DNA from: an uncultured Candidatus Saccharibacteria bacterium
Lineage (GTDB): Bacteria > Patescibacteriota > Minisyncoccia > Minisyncoccales > JANBVM01
Length of the DNA: 57,340 bases
Assembly (NCBI GenBank): GCA_964514375.1
Contig: CAZEQH010000005.1
Coordinates: forward strand, 1 to 57,340
Direction: 5' to 3'
The translations under genes were made by a program, and so were the position numbers. The notes under the pieces were generated by a model that was given only the letters and a program-made list of their open reading frames with translations, did not search any database and was not told where the DNA came from. Positions 29,381 through 45,853 of this stretch are shown here, piece after piece; the stretch's first letter is position 1; each line of letters starts with the position of its first letter.

Positions 29381-29479
29381 CCATTATTTTCGAGTTAATT
29401 CTATGAAATGAACGGAATCACCGTTCATTTTTGTGTAATAAATATCGTCTTTAGACGTCATACTATAAAGAGCACTAAT

Positions 29480-29637
29480 ATGGCCGAATTTTACTTACCA
29501 TTGTTATTTTTCTATTTTTTACCAAGAGGCCTTTTCGTCACTGCCACTACCTCTTCTTAGTGAGGTTGGTTTGTAGTTTAAATAAAAAAGTATATAACAC
29601 TGAAAAACAAACCAACCTCTCTGCGAAGAGGTTTTTT
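29480..29637 (+). promoter_or_regulatory. Attenuator-like leader (26-aa ORF 29480-29560 plus alternative hairpins), homologous to the thrS leader
   Basis: ORF ends GTC ACT GCC ACT ACC TCT TCT TAG; 13-bp 2:3 helix; AACCTCT/AGAGGTT terminator plus T tract. Confidence 0.7.
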
Positions 29638-29675
29638 CGTACTTTTACAATCAAAAATAAAGAGGTGAAAGCCGA

Positions 29676-29915
29676 ATGGAAAGCGAATTGGTATCAGTTA
29701 AGGATTTATTAATAGGAAGAGCCATTGTCGATATAAAGGAAATATCAGATAACCAGGGATGCAATATTATTAAATTTTGCCTGGATAATAACAGTGTCCT
29801 GGAGATGGGCATGAAAGACGGGATAAGAGACAACGGTATTTATCTGTACTCCTATTTATCTTTGGACGGCCGGGAAATATATAATGACGTTGACGGCCAA
29901 ATCAGCTCCTTCTAA
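29676..29915 (+). CDS. Hypothetical protein (79 aa)
   Basis: ORF with GAGGTG SD; followed by terminator 29927-29947. Confidence 0.6.
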   Translation: MESELVSVKDLLIGRAIVDIKEISDNQGCNIIKFCLDNNSVLEMGMKDGIRDNGIYLYSYLSLDGREIYNDVDGQISSF

Positions 29916-30050
29916 AGAATAATATTAAGGCCTTTCAGGCCTTTTTTATTACCTAATTCACTGTTTGGGCGGATGCCGAAGAACTCAGCCTGTTTCTCCC
30001 GTCGGGCGGGAGCGTAGTCGTTTATCCTGAACGAAGTCGAAGGAAATCCG

Positions 30051-30078
30051 TTGACAAATCATACTAAAATGTTATAAT
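30051..30078 (+). promoter_or_regulatory. Sigma70 promoter with extended -10
   Basis: TTGACA-16-TATAAT with TGn. Confidence 0.75.
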
Positions 30079-30313
30079 ATTAATAGTCGCGACTGGACAG
30101 AATCAAATAAAGATTCCCTTTCCTACACCATTCACGTAATGGTAGGGAAAGGGATGGAGGAGGGAGCACTTTTTATTACAAAATATAATCTCCTCCATCC
30201 CTTTCCCTATAGAGGGAATTGTTCTTTATAAGGAAAAAAGGGAAGAACCCTCGGATGGTGTAATTTGTTCGCTGAAAAAGAGAGGATAAATTACACCATC
30301 TGAGGTAAACTAG

Positions 30314-30595
30314 ATGAAAGAAAAAGTTTTTAAAGATGAGAAAGACATAGAAATATTCAGAAGGATCAGTATGCCTAACGTAGAAGATCTTTTGGATATA
30401 GAGATAGAAATCAAAAACCTGTCCAGTTTTTTCAACGAAGAGAGAGTTATGAAGGCGGTTGAAAAATTGATTATCCGCTTTGCCAGGATGGTTATTGTGT
30501 CTGGTATCACAACAGATCTCTTGGGGGACTGGTCAATGTTGGATAGAATAGACTCGTTTATAGAAGAGCTCAACAAAGAGTTAACATTATTTTAA
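30314..30595 (+). CDS. Hypothetical protein (93 aa)
   Basis: ORF with GAGGT SD buried in a long hairpin. Confidence 0.6.
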   Translation: MKEKVFKDEKDIEIFRRISMPNVEDLLDIEIEIKNLSSFFNEERVMKAVEKLIIRFARMVIVSGITTDLLGDWSMLDRIDSFIEELNKELTLF

Positions 30596-30782
30596 AATCT
30601 TCCTTTTTTCTTTTTTAATATTAACCCTGAGCTTGTCGAAGGGTTGACAAAGTCATCATAAACATTAATAATTTTAGTAGGCAGTAGCTTTTTTCTGAAT
30701 AGCCGTTTCTCCGAAATGATGGGAAACAGTTAGGCTGAAAGGTCGGGCTACTGGGAAAATACGAACGAATTCTGTTGGAACT

Positions 30783-31094
30783 ATGACAAAAGATTCAATT
30801 GACAAGGAATTTCTTGAGTATATTGTCAAAGCCTTAGTCGATAATCCCAGCGACGTCAAAGTTGATAGAAAAGTTGACGAAATGGGCGTATTACTTTCCC
30901 TGAAAGTAAACCCCGAAGATATGGGCCAAATTATCGGTAAGGGCGGCTCTACTGCTAGAGCTATCAGGAATCTGGTTCGGATTGTTGGGCTGAAGAATCA
31001 CGCCCGCGTGAACCTCAAAATAGAGGAACCAGAAGGCTCTGCTAAAGGAAAAAAGTCCTCAGCAGACGAAAGTCTTGAAGACTTAAAACTGTAA
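30783..31094 (+). CDS. khpA: KH-domain RNA-binding protein (KhpA/YlqC family)
   Basis: LEYIVKALVDNP, DMGQIIGKGGSTARAIR; in the rpsP-trmD neighbourhood. Confidence 0.88.
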   Translation: MTKDSIDKEFLEYIVKALVDNPSDVKVDRKVDEMGVLLSLKVNPEDMGQIIGKGGSTARAIRNLVRIVGLKNHARVNLKIEEPEGSAKGKKSSADESLEDLKL

Positions 31095-31160
31095 ATCTTA
31101 AACTCGATTTACTTTGCGAGAAAGCGATGCTATAATTATTAGCATCGTTTTCTTGTGTTT

Positions 31161-31859
31161 ATGCTGAAAATTGATATCGTTAGTATTTTCCCGGAAATAT
31201 TTGACCCTTTCCTTAAGACAAGCCTGATAAACAGGGCACAGAAAAAGGGGCTTCTTGGAATTGAAGTACACAATCTGAGAGACTGGACCGAAGATAATCA
31301 CCAGACGGTTGACGACAGGCCCTATGGGGGAGGTATCGGCATGGTGATGAAAGTTGAGCCCATATTTCGGGCCGTGAAAGACATCAAAAAATTAAAGCGG
31401 ACCAGTAAAAGAAAAGTCATCCTGTTTTCTCCCCGCGGAAAGAAGTTCAATCAGAAAGCAGCCCATTCTTTAAGCAGATTAAATCATATTATTATGCTGT
31501 GCGGAAGATACGAGGGGGTGGATGAGAGGGTGGCTAAGAATATAGCAGATGTCGAACTTTCCATAGGAGATTACGTTTTGATGGGAGGGGAATTACCTGC
31601 TATGGTGGTAATGGAATCTTTGGCTCGCCTCATTCCCGGCGTGCTGGGAAAACCCGCCTTTCTAAAGGAAAGAGTGACCAAGCAGAAAGGGTTTGTAGAA
31701 TATCCGCAGTATACTCGTCCCGAAGTATTCAGTCCGGGTCCTCGGCAGAGTAAAAGCAAGAAAACAGCGAAATGGAAAGTACCCGAGGTCTTGCTTACAG
31801 GCGATCACAAGAAGATTCAAGAATGGAGAGAAGAGCACTCTAAAGTTATTGAGGAATAG
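31161..31859 (+). CDS. trmD: tRNA (guanine-N1)-methyltransferase
   Basis: [42 protein letters not shown]. Confidence 0.97.
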
Positions 31860-31972: not shown

Positions 31973-32054
31973 GGGTGGTTGGCGGAGCAGCTATCGCACC
32001 AGTCTGTAAAACTGGCGTCTTATGACTTCGGGGGTGCAAGTCCCTCACCACCCA
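31973..32054 (+). tRNA. tRNA-Tyr(GTA)
   Basis: GGGTGGT/ACCACCC acceptor, CCAGT-CTGTAAA-ACTGG anticodon arm, long variable arm. Confidence 0.92.
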
Positions 32055-32216
32055 CACAAAGAGATATTAGTACGCTCGCCTTGCGAGCTTTAGTAGATGA
32101 GTAAAGAGAACTTATTTGCTTATTAACTCATCTCCCCATCTGCTCATTAACTAATAAACTTTTAATTACACGGTAATTACAAGGAGCGTAACGACTGATT
32201 CCTATTACTAGTTATC

Positions 32217-32289
32217 GCCGATGTAGCTCAGTTGGCAGAGCACCTCCATGGTAAGGAGTAGGTCGCCAGTTCAAGTCTGGCCATCGGCT
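32217..32289 (+). tRNA. tRNA-Thr(GGT)
   Basis: GCCGATG/CATCGGC acceptor, loop ATGGTAA, T arm GTTCAAGT. Confidence 0.92.
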
Positions 32290-32383
32290 CATAAATGTGT
32301 ATTGTTTAAATTAGAAACATAACCTGGAGTTTTGAAAATTAATCCTGAATTAGAGGGATTTAATTCGAAATTCTTCTACGGGG

Positions 32384-32545
32384 ATGCCGAAAAAAAAGAA
32401 ACCATACGTAAAAATGAAGTGTACCATTTGCAAGAGGGTGAACTATTACACCCGCAAATCCCAAAAAATGATAGGGGAAAAGTTAGAGTTGAAAAAGTAC
32501 TGCAAATGGTGCAAGAAACATACCCTTCATAAGGAGGCGAAATAA
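32384..32545 (+). CDS. rpmG: 50S ribosomal protein L33, Zn-binding form (missed by the ORF track)
   Basis: [25 protein letters not shown]...[20 protein letters not shown]; lies before tRNA-Trp. Confidence 0.93.
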
Positions 32546-32577
32546 TCCTGTGTTTATAGTTTAGTATTTGACTATAT

Positions 32578-32651
32578 GGGGGCGTCGGTTAATAGGCAAA
32601 CCACCGGTCTCCAAAACCGGCATACTGGGGGTTCAATTCCCTCCGCCCCTG
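32578..32651 (+). tRNA. tRNA-Trp(CCA)
   Basis: GGGGGCG/CGCCCCT acceptor, CCGGT-CTCCAAA-ACCGG anticodon arm. Confidence 0.93.
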
Positions 32652-32873
32652 CAACCCTTCGCTAAAGCTACGGAATTGCTTCGGGGCTTTAAAATAAGAT
32701 ATCCGCATAGTCAATCAGGTGTTCTGAAGCTTTAGCGAAAGACACCTCTCCGCCCCTGCTTGTCTCGCCGGAGCCTTGTAGGGCGAAGGTGGGCCTTTCT
32801 TAAATGGCGTGGAAACACGTCATTTATTCTTCTCTTAAAGGGTATCTTCGTGTTATAATAACGTAGTAAAGAT

Positions 32874-35633: not shown

Positions 35634-36851
35634 ATGAGCCTTAAAGAATATTTTAAAATTGCAATAAAGAATCTGATGACCAGGCCCCTGAGAAGCTGGC
35701 TGACTATTCTGGGGATTGTTATCGGGGTTTTTCTGATAACTTCACTTCTTTCTATTAGTGAGGGGCTGCAGAATACGATTATGAAAGAACTTAAAATGAT
35801 AGGAAAAGACATTGTCATTATTGTTCCCGGAGAAGCTACCAATTTCGTTACGGCTTTTCTTGGACATCTTAAGTTGAGTGACGAAGACCTCAAGGCCATC
35901 AGGAAGACGGAAGGCGTGGAGGCTGTAGTGCCCGTCATAGATAAAACCGAAATTGTCAGATACAGAGGCGAAAGCAAGCCCATTCTGATATCCGGGTCTG
36001 ATTGGAGGAATTCCCTGGAGATTTACCAGACAGACATGGGTCTTTCATTAAAAGAGGGAAGATGGCCTGTGGCCGGAAAGAAAGAGGTGGTGGTTGGCAG
36101 TTTAATTCCAGAGGAAATCTTTAAAGATTTGATAATAAACACCTACCTCAGCATCCAGGGCAGAAACTATGAGATAGTGGGAATACTTAATTCCATGGGT
36201 TCGAAAATGGACGATTCTCTTGTCCATCTGGATGCGGATATTTTCAAGGAAATAACCGGAGAAAGGAAAGGAGCCAATCAGGCCTTGGCTAAAATAAAGT
36301 CTGGCTATTCTCCGGAGACGGTTGCTGAGAACATCAAAGAGAATCTGAAGGAAGTGCAGAAAAGAAGACAGGGACAGGATGAAATTCCATTTTCCGTCTT
36401 AACCAGTGAAAAAGTGGGAGGTATTGTGAGTAATGTTACCGGAGTGATTCAACTGGCAGTTTTCAGTTTCGCCAGCATAGCCATCGCCGTCGGAGGAATC
36501 GGCATTATGAACACTATGTATACTTCCGTTCATGAAAGGACCAGGGAAATAGGTATCCTAAAAGCGGTGGGAGCCAAGAGCTCTGTCATTACTTTTTTAT
36601 TCCTTGTAGAGTCGGGAATCATAGGAGTAGTTGGGGGATTGGGAGGTCTTTTGCCGGGATTGGCTTTAGCAAAACTGATTGAAAGCGTGGCTCAAGTGCA
36701 TCCTGTATTTTATATCGAAGCTTCTTTTTCACCATTTATCCTTTTCTTTGGAGTGTCATTTTCATTCTTTGTCGGATGTCTGTCGGGATTTTTGCCGGCC
36801 AGGAGGGCGGCCTCATTAAAGCCTGTTGATGCACTAAGAAGTTATGAATAA
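35634..36851 (+). CDS. ABC transporter permease (MacB/FtsX-like)
   Basis: RSWLTILGIVIG, GGIGIMNTMYTSVHERTREIGILKAVGA. Confidence 0.92.
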   Translation: MSLKEYFKIAIKNLMTRPLRSWLTILGIVIGVFLITSLLSISEGLQNTIMKELKMIGKDIVIIVPGEATNFVTAFLGHLKLSDEDLKAIRKTEGVEAVVPVIDKTEIVRYRGESKPILISGSDWRNSLEIYQTDMGLSLKEGRWPVAGKKEVVVGSLIPEEIFKDLIINTYLSIQGRNYEIVGILNSMGSKMDDSLVHLDADIFKEITGERKGANQALAKIKSGYSPETVAENIKENLKEVQKRRQGQDEIPFSVLTSEKVGGIVSNVTGVIQLAVFSFASIAIAVGGIGIMNTMYTSVHERTREIGILKAVGAKSSVITFLFLVESGIIGVVGGLGGLLPGLALAKLIESVAQVHPVFYIEASFSPFILFFGVSFSFFVGCLSGFLPARRAASLKPVDALRSYE

Positions 36852-40100: not shown

Positions 40101-40129
40101 TTGACACGTTTTGAGGGAAAGTATATACT
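40101..40129 (+). promoter_or_regulatory. Promoter of rplJL
   Basis: TTGACA-17-TATACT. Confidence 0.8.
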
Positions 40130-40140
40130 TTATTATTATT

Positions 40141-40224
40141 CCACAGACAGCAGGCAGCTTTAAAAAGCGTAAACACTCCTGCCGAGGAAACTTAAAAGTT
40201 TATTTTTTTGTTTTTTGTCTGTGG
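40141..40224 (+). promoter_or_regulatory. L10 leader RNA
   Basis: AGACAGCAGG...CCTGCCGAGG core, closing CCACAGACA/TGTCTGTGG; upstream of rplJ. Confidence 0.8.
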
Positions 40225-40300
40225 TATTCCACAGATTTTTATTTTTCCCATAGAGAAATTTCTGTTCAATATTAGTAGATATCCGAATTATTATATTAGT

Positions 40301-45625: not shown

Positions 45626-45699
45626 GGGCGAATGGCTCAGTTGGTCAGAGCGCTGCATTCACATTGCAGAGGTCACAGGTTCGAATCCTGTTTCGCCCA
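45626..45699 (+). tRNA. tRNA-Val(CAC)
   Basis: GGGCGAA/TTCGCCC acceptor, CTGCA-TTCACAT-TGCAG anticodon arm. Confidence 0.93.
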
Positions 45700-45853
45700 C
45701 CTTTCCCTTCAACTAGGTTCAGGGCAAGCGACTCGCGTTGCTCGCTCCCTTCGACAAGCTCCGGATAAAACAGGACAGGCTATTTAATCGCTTTTTGGCG
45801 ATTTTTTGTTTACAAAATTATTAGGAAATGAGATGATTAACTAATAGTCTTAT

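Follow-up and report, generated by a model that had tools for sequence, protein, structure and literature searches.

A probable threonine-responsive attenuator related to thrS leaders precedes an orphan small gene in a Patescibacteria genome

Leader-peptide attenuation requires tight coupling of transcription and translation, and its textbook example at an aminoacyl-tRNA synthetase is pheM-pheST; in Firmicutes, thrS is usually controlled by T-box leaders. For the uncultured bacteria of the candidate phyla radiation (CPR), gene regulation is, to our knowledge, almost unknown. According to Naville and Gautheret (2010, PMC2965389), leader peptides had previously been shown only in Proteobacteria and Actinobacteria, and they are described mainly from these groups, with a few cases in Firmicutes; the authors explain the His leader peptides before hisS/hisZ paralogues in Bacilli by an attenuation system having been captured or duplicated. 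Here, a stretch of 57,340 nucleotides from an uncultured Candidatus Saccharibacteria bacterium (assembly GCA_964514375.1, contig CAZEQH010000005.1; hereafter the window) was analyzed, in which an open reading frame (ORF) for an uncharacterized protein of 79 amino acids (ORF79, 29676-29915, + strand) is preceded by an element resembling the leader of thrS in the same window. We consider it likely that this element (29480-29637), a paralogue of the thrS leader, is a working, threonine-responsive, ribosome-mediated transcription attenuator that gates ORF79.

Compared with the thrS leader of its own lineage, the element shares the four pairing segments, an ACCTCTT at the end of the leader ORF, an AAGAGGT followed by a T run, the codon register, Thr codons in the predicted sensing window and a -10-like element past the terminator. 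It differs in preceding an orphan ORF, in lacking the TTGACA promoter, in its interrupted Thr run, in a longer leader (26 versus 14-20 codons) with a longer loop, and in a perfect 13-bp helix between segments 2 and 3 (2:3). With E. coli thrL/thrABC (RF00506), trpL and pheM it has in common a short ORF in which cognate codons are clustered, a mutually exclusive antiterminator and terminator, and the position of an intrinsic terminator before the regulated gene. Those systems form tandem 1:2 and 3:4 hairpins in the untranslated state, for which a nested 1:4 plus 2:3 structure is predicted here; in addition, the host belongs to the CPR and the gene under control is not known to be connected with amino-acid metabolism. 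Neither copy has an Rfam family: Thr_leader RF00506 and the other leader families were unmatched at gathering score, and matches over the attenuator at E <= 5 were chance miRNA-like hairpins, with no leader family among them. Because no Rfam leader family was matched in sequence or structure, an origin independent of the Proteobacteria leaders is indicated. The output logic, in which uncharged tRNA-Thr leads to antitermination before thrS, would be shared with T-box leaders, but the element is far too short for one, contains an ORF and is proposed to sense through the ribosome rather than by direct tRNA binding; no match to the T-box covariance model was found in the window. As with the His leaders of Bacilli, the closest published parallel found, related attenuators stand before two different genes of one genome; there both targets serve His metabolism or charging, whereas the second target here is an orphan protein. 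A full-text literature search, whose incomplete coverage makes it absence of evidence only, returned nothing linking Patescibacteria, CPR or Parcubacteria to leader-peptide attenuation and no description of a Thr-codon attenuator of thrS. The mechanism itself is a textbook one; what the window adds is a new family, not in Rfam, in a new phylum.

The leader of ORF79 and its thrS counterpart

The leader ORF runs on the + strand from an ATG at 29480 to a TAG at 29558-29560, comprising 26 codons and the stop, and would encode the peptide MAEFYLPLLFFYFLPRGLFVTATTSS, which ends in V-T-A-T-T-S-S-stop. It is the 3' portion of a longer open frame in the ORF list. The openness of this frame is no evidence by itself, because the T-rich stretch 29480-29560 leaves all three frames open, and it was dropped as an argument for translation. 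Segment 1 (ACCTCTT, 29549-29555, + strand) can pair with segment 2 over 5 bp or with segment 4 (AAGAGGT). Segment 2 (GAGGTTGGTTTGT, 29562-29574, + strand) forms the 5' strand of the antiterminator, and segment 3 (ACAAACCAACCTC, 29607-29619, + strand), its perfect 13-bp complement, forms the 3' strand. The terminator scan placed an intrinsic terminator (3:4) between the leader ORF and ORF79, with the sequence AACCTCT-CTGCGA-AGAGGTT (29614-29633, + strand) and a T6 tract reaching 29637. Segment 3 overlaps the 5' strand of this terminator at 29614-29619, the antiterminator being an alternative helix that uses this strand. The 1:2 hairpin (ACCTC/GAGGT), called by the same scan, is weak, with 5 bp only. 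For the ORF79 and thrS leaders alike, the minimum-energy fold was the nested 1:4 plus 2:3 hairpin abutting the U run, and both were more stable than shuffled sequences (z -3.9 and -2.8). All elements listed in an earlier reading of the window made from the sequence only were recovered at their coordinates by direct inspection.

The homology between the two leaders was established with a covariance model (R1) trained on 45 thrS leaders, from which the ORF79 copies were excluded. R1 matched the ORF79 leader over the full model length (29531-29641; 50.4 bits, E 1.7e-9), compared with 67.2 bits for the thrS leader of the window and 17.6 bits for the best unrelated site in these 57 kb. The two copies align without gaps as CCACTACCTCTT + 6 nt + G[GA]GG[CT]TGGTTTGT, in identical codon register, with the stop codon of the ORF79 leader one codon later than that of the thrS leader. 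A shared 12-mer occurs exactly twice in the window; at one mismatch or fewer there are 3 sites against 0.18 expected, a number reached by no shuffle. The third of these, at 36082-36093 on the - strand, was considered as a further copy and rejected, being ordinary sequence that carries no attenuator features and is unmatched by R1. Between the two copies, the 2:3 helix differs at four pairs (G.U to A-U, C-G to U-A, U.G to U-A and G.U to G-C), one of them, C-G to U-A, changed on both sides, and pairing is kept at all four.

These results agree with what the sequence-only reading had proposed, namely a clear relationship to the thrS leader with substitutions that preserve pairing. Its core claim, that a homologous Thr attenuator was reused before an uncharacterized gene, is supported by R1, which recovers the ORF79 leader from thrS leaders alone, as well as by a copy in a further species and by the thrS loci of related bacteria, both described below.

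The thrS leader region lies on the - strand at 22249-22104 and includes promoter, leader ORF, antiterminator and terminator. Its promoter (TTGACA-16-TAGAAT, 22249-22222) shows 11/12 consensus matches; it is followed by the leader ORF (MKAPTLTNAITTTTTS and a stop codon, 22210-22160, read from the sequence), the terminator with its T run (22128-22109, terminator scan) and thrS itself (22012-20288). The window also contains a tRNA-Thr(GGU) gene (32217-32290), whose product decodes ACU and ACC, the codons that both leaders use, among seven tRNA genes located at 125-483, 31973-32652 and 45626-45701.

From this architecture, the following course of events is proposed. RNA polymerase would enter the leader either after starting at a weak promoter or after reading through the rpsP terminator, and a ribosome would translate the 26-codon leader ORF. 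With Thr-tRNA plentiful, the ribosome would reach the stop codon (29558-29560) and cover segment 2, the 3:4 terminator would form, and transcription would stop at the T run. With Thr-tRNA scarce, the ribosome would stall with its A site on ACT-GCC-ACT-ACC (29540-29551) and cover segment 1; segments 2 and 3 would then pair over 13 bp, segment 4 would be left partnerless, and polymerase would continue into ORF79. If the leader were untranslated, the nested 1:4 plus 2:3 hairpin would form, which should also terminate because it abuts the T run.

The parent thrS leaders and the orthologues of the ORF79 copy

ThrS of the window shares 70-71% identity with proteins named Candidatus Nealsonbacteria (Parcubacteria within Patescibacteria/CPR). 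In three relatives, whose ThrS proteins are 88%, 72% and 71% identical, the regions upstream of thrS contain a TTGACA promoter, a 15-16-codon ORF with 7-8 consecutive Thr codons ending in T-S-(L)-stop, and the four segments, with changes in the 2:3 helix compensated. Species-representative genomes and metagenomes were then scanned with the exact pattern ACNACCTCTT N{32,62} CCTCT N{4,8} AGAGGTTTT, which yielded 23 and 45 loci, respectively. About 55 of these loci carry a 14-20-codon ORF with 4-9 in-register Thr codons and the ending T-S-[FLS]-stop, and nearly all thrS leaders have a TTGACA-16/17-TAnAAT promoter. The downstream gene was thrS (45-88% identical) at every Thr-run locus with readable downstream DNA. 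Apart from the thrS loci, a thrB-thrS locus and a proB-like locus, the pattern matches were chance ones, such as the 3' end of a tRNA gene with a terminator behind it. An exact pattern misses diverged copies, as it did the one in L076 (see below).

In one relative (L035, Ga0114923_10006843, 806-1823, - strand), the attenuator is followed by thrB and then by thrS. This thrB encodes a homoserine kinase (NF002288, 357 bits against a cut-off of 194), a Thr-biosynthesis gene inserted under the thrS switch. The presence of thrB ties the family to threonine independently of the codons.

The antiterminator was assessed in an alignment of 45 distinct thrS leaders made with MAFFT and no structure fitting (A4). 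Paired cells of the 2:3 helix amounted to 79%, against 66% in shuffles and 29-59% in slid controls, and 72 cells were changed on both sides against 24 expected, with 0/500 shuffles as high. RNAalifold applied to the thrS alignment predicted the terminator alone, and the antiterminator was shown by this explicit pairing test. The invariance of segment 1, segment 4 and the terminator in the alignment arises partly because the search pattern demanded them, and nothing is drawn from it. With its runs of Thr codons, its covarying antiterminator and the locus with inserted thrB, the thrS leader is a well-supported Thr attenuator.

Relatives of ORF79 were found in two other species only, by word-indexed search, phmmer and profile search. 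The first (L001; GCA_964566875.1, contig CAZMJM010000058) encodes a protein 72% identical to ORF79, with a dN/dS of 0.157 at a dS of ~0.99 and third codon positions 65% identical. Against this background, 17 nt over segment 2 and the 45 nt from segment 3 through the terminator and 14 nt beyond it, to the hexamer TACAAT, were each 100% identical between the two species, whereas the loop between segments 2 and 3 has diverged. The probability of these 62 unbroken identities at 65% neutral identity is ~1e-12. R1 gave 32.3 bits for this copy, which is truncated at its 5' end. The thrS leader of the same assembly lies on another contig (L012), and sequence common to both leaders may have led the assembly to break off here artefactually.

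The second relative (L076/L077) encodes a homologue of 84 amino acids (P0123; 45% identical, E 8e-7) in the same gene order as in the window: rnc, rpsP, the ORF and khpA. Its leader is intact, with an ATG and 22 in-register codons encoding MLSTNLHLISWNFFEGTTTTSF, which ends in EGTTTTSF before the stop. Segment 2 (AGGGGCTGGTTTGT) is identical to the thrS-type segment 2 of the window and retains 11/13 positions of the ORF79 copy; segment 3 is ACAAGCCAACCTC, and the terminator AACCTC-N8-GAGGTT with T6 is followed by a GAGGTG Shine-Dalgarno sequence and an ATG. In its N-terminal part, the leader peptide shows no conservation with that of the window. R1 matched this copy at 50.2 bits. The motif with an in-register ORF accordingly recurs outside the window, in the L076 leader and in the in-register Thr runs of the ~55 thrS loci, contrary to the first condition that the sequence-only reading had named for its own refutation.

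Identity among the leaders before ORF79 is 77-80%, and with thrS leaders it does not exceed 67% (median ~57%). The ORF79-type leaders, as a subgroup of their own, are therefore orthologues from one old duplication of a thrS leader and not recent copies. Since the gene downstream is ORF79 and not thrS, the element is a paralogous offshoot of the thrS leader family rather than an orthologue of its members. The sequence-only reading had spoken of a reused or mobile module. Reuse is supported by the R1 homology; mobility is not, because the synteny of the three ORF79 loci fits a single old duplication.

Sensed codons, entry of transcription and alternative explanations

The codons to which the leader would respond were located with a partition-function model of ribosome masking, in which RNA was removed to 10, 12 or 14 nt past the A-site codon and the probability that the terminator 3' strand (segment 4) is paired, P(paired), was read out. 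P(paired) was 0.98 in the absence of a ribosome and likewise when any codon further upstream was occupied, and with the ribosome on the stop-adjacent Ser codon or the stop codon it was 0.94-0.97. Values of 0.12-0.5, with a minimum of 0.12-0.15, were obtained at codons 21-24 only, which makes the predicted sensing codons ACT GCC ACT ACC (Thr Ala Thr Thr; 29540-29551, + strand). The same model predicted release at codons 17-20 (TTTT; 0.01-0.02) in L076 and at codons 12-15 (TTTT; 0.00) in the thrS leader of the window, and the predicted sensing window falls on Thr codons in all three leaders. The cluster before ORF79 is weaker than in its relatives, with T-A-T-T compared with TTTT in L076 and 4-9 Thr in the thrS leaders, one of the four predicted sensing codons being mutated to Ala (ACC to GCC).

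How transcription reaches the leader was considered from the promoters and terminators around it. The upstream gene, rpsP, was identified by Pfam Ribosomal_S16 and ends in a terminator, GAACGG-N5-CCGTTC followed by ATTTTT (29410-29435, + strand; read from the sequence), whose hairpin is kept in L076. Because this terminator is modest, with a 6-bp stem, polymerase may read through it into the leader. When the window was aligned with L076, there was further a conserved block at 29435-29466 (+ strand), GTAATAAAT followed after 17 nt by TACTAT (TATATT in L076), or GTAATAAAT-17-TAYWWT, in which the hexamer lies 9-13 nt before the leader ATG and has no consensus -35; this block could be a weak promoter. 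Downstream of the terminator, a -10-like hexamer TACAAT (29646-29651, + strand) is also TACAAT in L001 and TAAAAT in L076. It has neither a TG extension nor a -35, its position matches that of the extended -10 of thrS, and it could serve as a basal promoter of ORF79.

At thrS in the window, the extended -10 (TGCTAAAAT, 22040-22032, - strand) lies between the attenuator and the ATG. Across 43 thrS loci (L005-L075), an extended -10 (TGnTAAAAT or TATATAAT) was found, often 12-17 nt before the ATG: the motif TGnTAnnnT occurs downstream of the attenuator at 23/43 loci, against 4.0 +/- 2.0 in shuffles (maximum 10), and TAnAAT at the same place in 37/43, against 21 +/- 3. A Shine-Dalgarno sequence is missing from every thrS upstream region that was read. 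Judging from these motifs, thrS probably has a second, constitutive promoter in addition to attenuator-gated readthrough from the first, and the placement of the second promoter suggests that it often yields a leaderless or nearly leaderless thrS mRNA.

Several observations weigh against a working attenuator before ORF79. The sigma-70 promoter scan found no consensus promoter 5' of the leader, and the Shine-Dalgarno sequence in front of the leader ATG (AAGAG) is weak. The Thr run of the window species is degraded, with 3 Thr among 4 codons and Ala in the middle, and the modelled readthrough is shallower, P(paired) falling no lower than 0.12-0.15 compared with 0.00-0.02 in the other two leaders; the model is, moreover, an equilibrium and not a kinetic one. 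The contig of L001 starts with the last two bases of the leader stop codon, and the leader ORF is absent from the data for that species. Finally, the -10-like hexamer 3' of the terminator is conserved in all three species, and ORF79 may therefore be transcribed also, or only, from there.

Some of these points could be accommodated if the leader were a relic that no longer senses and now separates ORF79 from the highly expressed rpsP as a constitutive terminator or insulator, with ORF79 transcribed from the hexamer at 29646-29651. The missing promoter before the leader, the decay of the Thr run to T-A-T-T, and the conservation of TACAAT/TAAAAT at the position of the second thrS promoter would all be expected in that case. 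However, rpsP already has its own terminator, and the hexamer lacks both a TG extension and a -35. A plain terminator needs no segment 2, yet this segment was kept without change relative to L001 at a dS of ~1 and at 11/13 positions in L076, and the L076 leader retains its ATG and has four Thr codons in frame, precisely where the model puts the sensing window. We therefore regard such a relic as unlikely and prefer a leader that still responds to Thr-tRNA.

A functional attenuator that answers to another signal, such as Phe/Leu supply, Ala or a general slowing of translation, is less probable still. The leader is rich in Phe and Leu (5 codons each), and the central codon of the modelled sensing window is GCC (Ala). 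In the model, however, a ribosome on the Phe/Leu codons leaves the terminator fully formed (P = 0.98), the Phe/Leu-rich part is unconserved in L076, where the sensing window is TTTT, and the parent family is linked to thrS and thrB. Of the signals named in the sequence-only reading, 'Thr (or Phe/Leu)', Thr is retained by the position of the modelled window on T-A-T-T, and Phe/Leu was rejected, since those codons fall outside the readthrough window and are not conserved in L076.

It is very improbable that the leader unit is the gene itself, acting in trans as a terminated RNA or peptide in the manner of Sinorhizobium rnTrpL/peTrpL, the precedent described in PMC6614838 and PMC7298713, with adjacency to ORF79 incidental: the terminated product is predicted to fold into a stable RNA of ~150 nt, and segments 1 and 3 resemble the 16S rRNA 3' end and segments 2 and 4 a Shine-Dalgarno sequence, but the N-terminal part of the peptide diverges between the window and L076, the leader accompanies ORF79 in all three species that have the gene, and there is no known target.

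ORF79, its neighbourhood and the reuse of the module

By its Shine-Dalgarno sequence (GAGGTG, 29662-29667, + strand, 8 nt 5' of the ATG and kept in L001 and L076), its low dN/dS and its own terminator, ORF79 is judged to be a real gene under purifying selection. The terminator scan located that terminator, AAGGCCT-TTC-AGGCCTT with a T run, at 29927-29950 (+ strand; hairpin 29927-29943), and it closes a monocistronic unit. The encoded protein is beta-rich. The word-indexed search returned one relative and an exhaustive phmmer search of 1.8 billion representatives one more; a profile search for further relatives found none beyond these two. No ORF79 family was found in Pfam or NCBIfam, matches in PHROGs were at chance level only, and a profile search of PDB sequences gave 0 matches. 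An AF2 model built from the three sequences (pLDDT 83) contains a short helix and five strands. Foldseek searches of the PDB with two AF2 models gave best E values of 0.14 and 0.38 at a TM of ~0.3, which are not meaningful. The family and structure searches suggested by the sequence-only reading accordingly yielded no family, PDB relative or fold match.

All three ORF79 homologues lack Thr altogether. The share of Thr in the long ORFs of the window is 4.1%, and only 3.2% of 79-aa windows are Thr-free; the joint chance of three Thr-free homologues, with relatedness allowed for, is ~0.002, a post hoc figure that is suggestive only. A protein free of Thr would suit synthesis while Thr-tRNA is scarce, and our best guess is that ORF79 is a small protein made, and still makeable, during Thr-tRNA limitation. 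The expectation that the attenuator would hint at the function of the gene is at most weakly borne out, zero Thr being the only link found alongside the lack of a family or fold match.

The interval between ORF79 and khpA varies among the species (window 29916-30782, L001 356-1663, L076 2097-2433): it holds a 93-aa ORF in the window (30314-30595; no family in Pfam or NCBIfam), a 121-aa ORF of the MJ1673 family in L001 and neither of these in L076. A likely small-RNA gene lies within it at 30051-30232 (+ strand), with counterparts at ~1380-1510 in L001 and ~2130-2290 in L076, and is conserved in the three species. Its promoter, TTGACA-16-TATAAT with a TG, is a 12/12 match. The predicted fold of ~145 nt is very stable (-57 kcal/mol, z -5.6); it contains a 20-bp hairpin (GGGAAAGGGAUGGAGGAGGG/CCCUCCUCCAUCCCUUUCCC) and a smaller one (CCAUUCACGUAAUGG) and ends in a terminator-like structure, and no Rfam family matched it. 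The 5' untranslated region (UTR) of khpA, which encodes a KH-domain protein (Pfam KH_KhpA-B), contains the 19-nt motif GGCTGAAAGGTCGGGCTAC (window 30733-30751, + strand; L001 ~1616-1634; L076 ~2388-2406), identical in the three species despite highly diverged proteins. In L001 and L076 a TTGACA promoter lies 5' of this motif, which probably belongs to a structured leader in front of khpA-trmD, an operon. rimM, whose usual place is between khpA and trmD, is absent, and khpA (30783-31094) is directly followed by trmD (31155-31859). Elsewhere in the window, a ribosomal protein L10 leader was recognized at 40123-40252 (+ strand; Rfam RF00557, 68 bits).

Another copy of the module was found in Patescibacteria bacterium KR11_N3.mb.38 (L022; JAHIHE010000019.1, 4132-4263; R1 37.7 bits) and also in L052. 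The L022 copy has its own TTGACA promoter and the leader peptide MSTTEIVSTINLQVPPTTSCH, ending at a stop codon, and lies 360 nt 5' of a gene for a proB-like glutamate 5-kinase (130 bits with TIGR01027, under the cut-off of 186; Pfam AA_kinase). The ribosome-masking model placed its readthrough window on Pro15-Pro16-Thr17, and the L022/L052 attenuator may be a copy retuned to proline.

A broader proposal can be put forward tentatively, and we hold it to be somewhat doubtful: in these ultra-small CPR bacteria the Thr attenuator would be a portable regulatory cassette that is copied to new genes and codon-swapped, as in the L022/L052 copy with Pro-Pro-Thr, and ORF79, encoded within the rpsP-khpA-trmD ribosome-biogenesis cluster, would be a protein with no Thr and a new fold, serving a dedicated response to Thr-tRNA shortage.

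For the organism, ORF79 is probably switched on when charged threonine tRNA is short, as far as the leader can be read from its sequence. A signal readable from codons in this way provides a rare, testable statement on when an orphan gene would be needed, namely during Thr-tRNA shortage, and the pair of leaders illustrates the growth of a regulon by duplication of a cis-acting RNA module.

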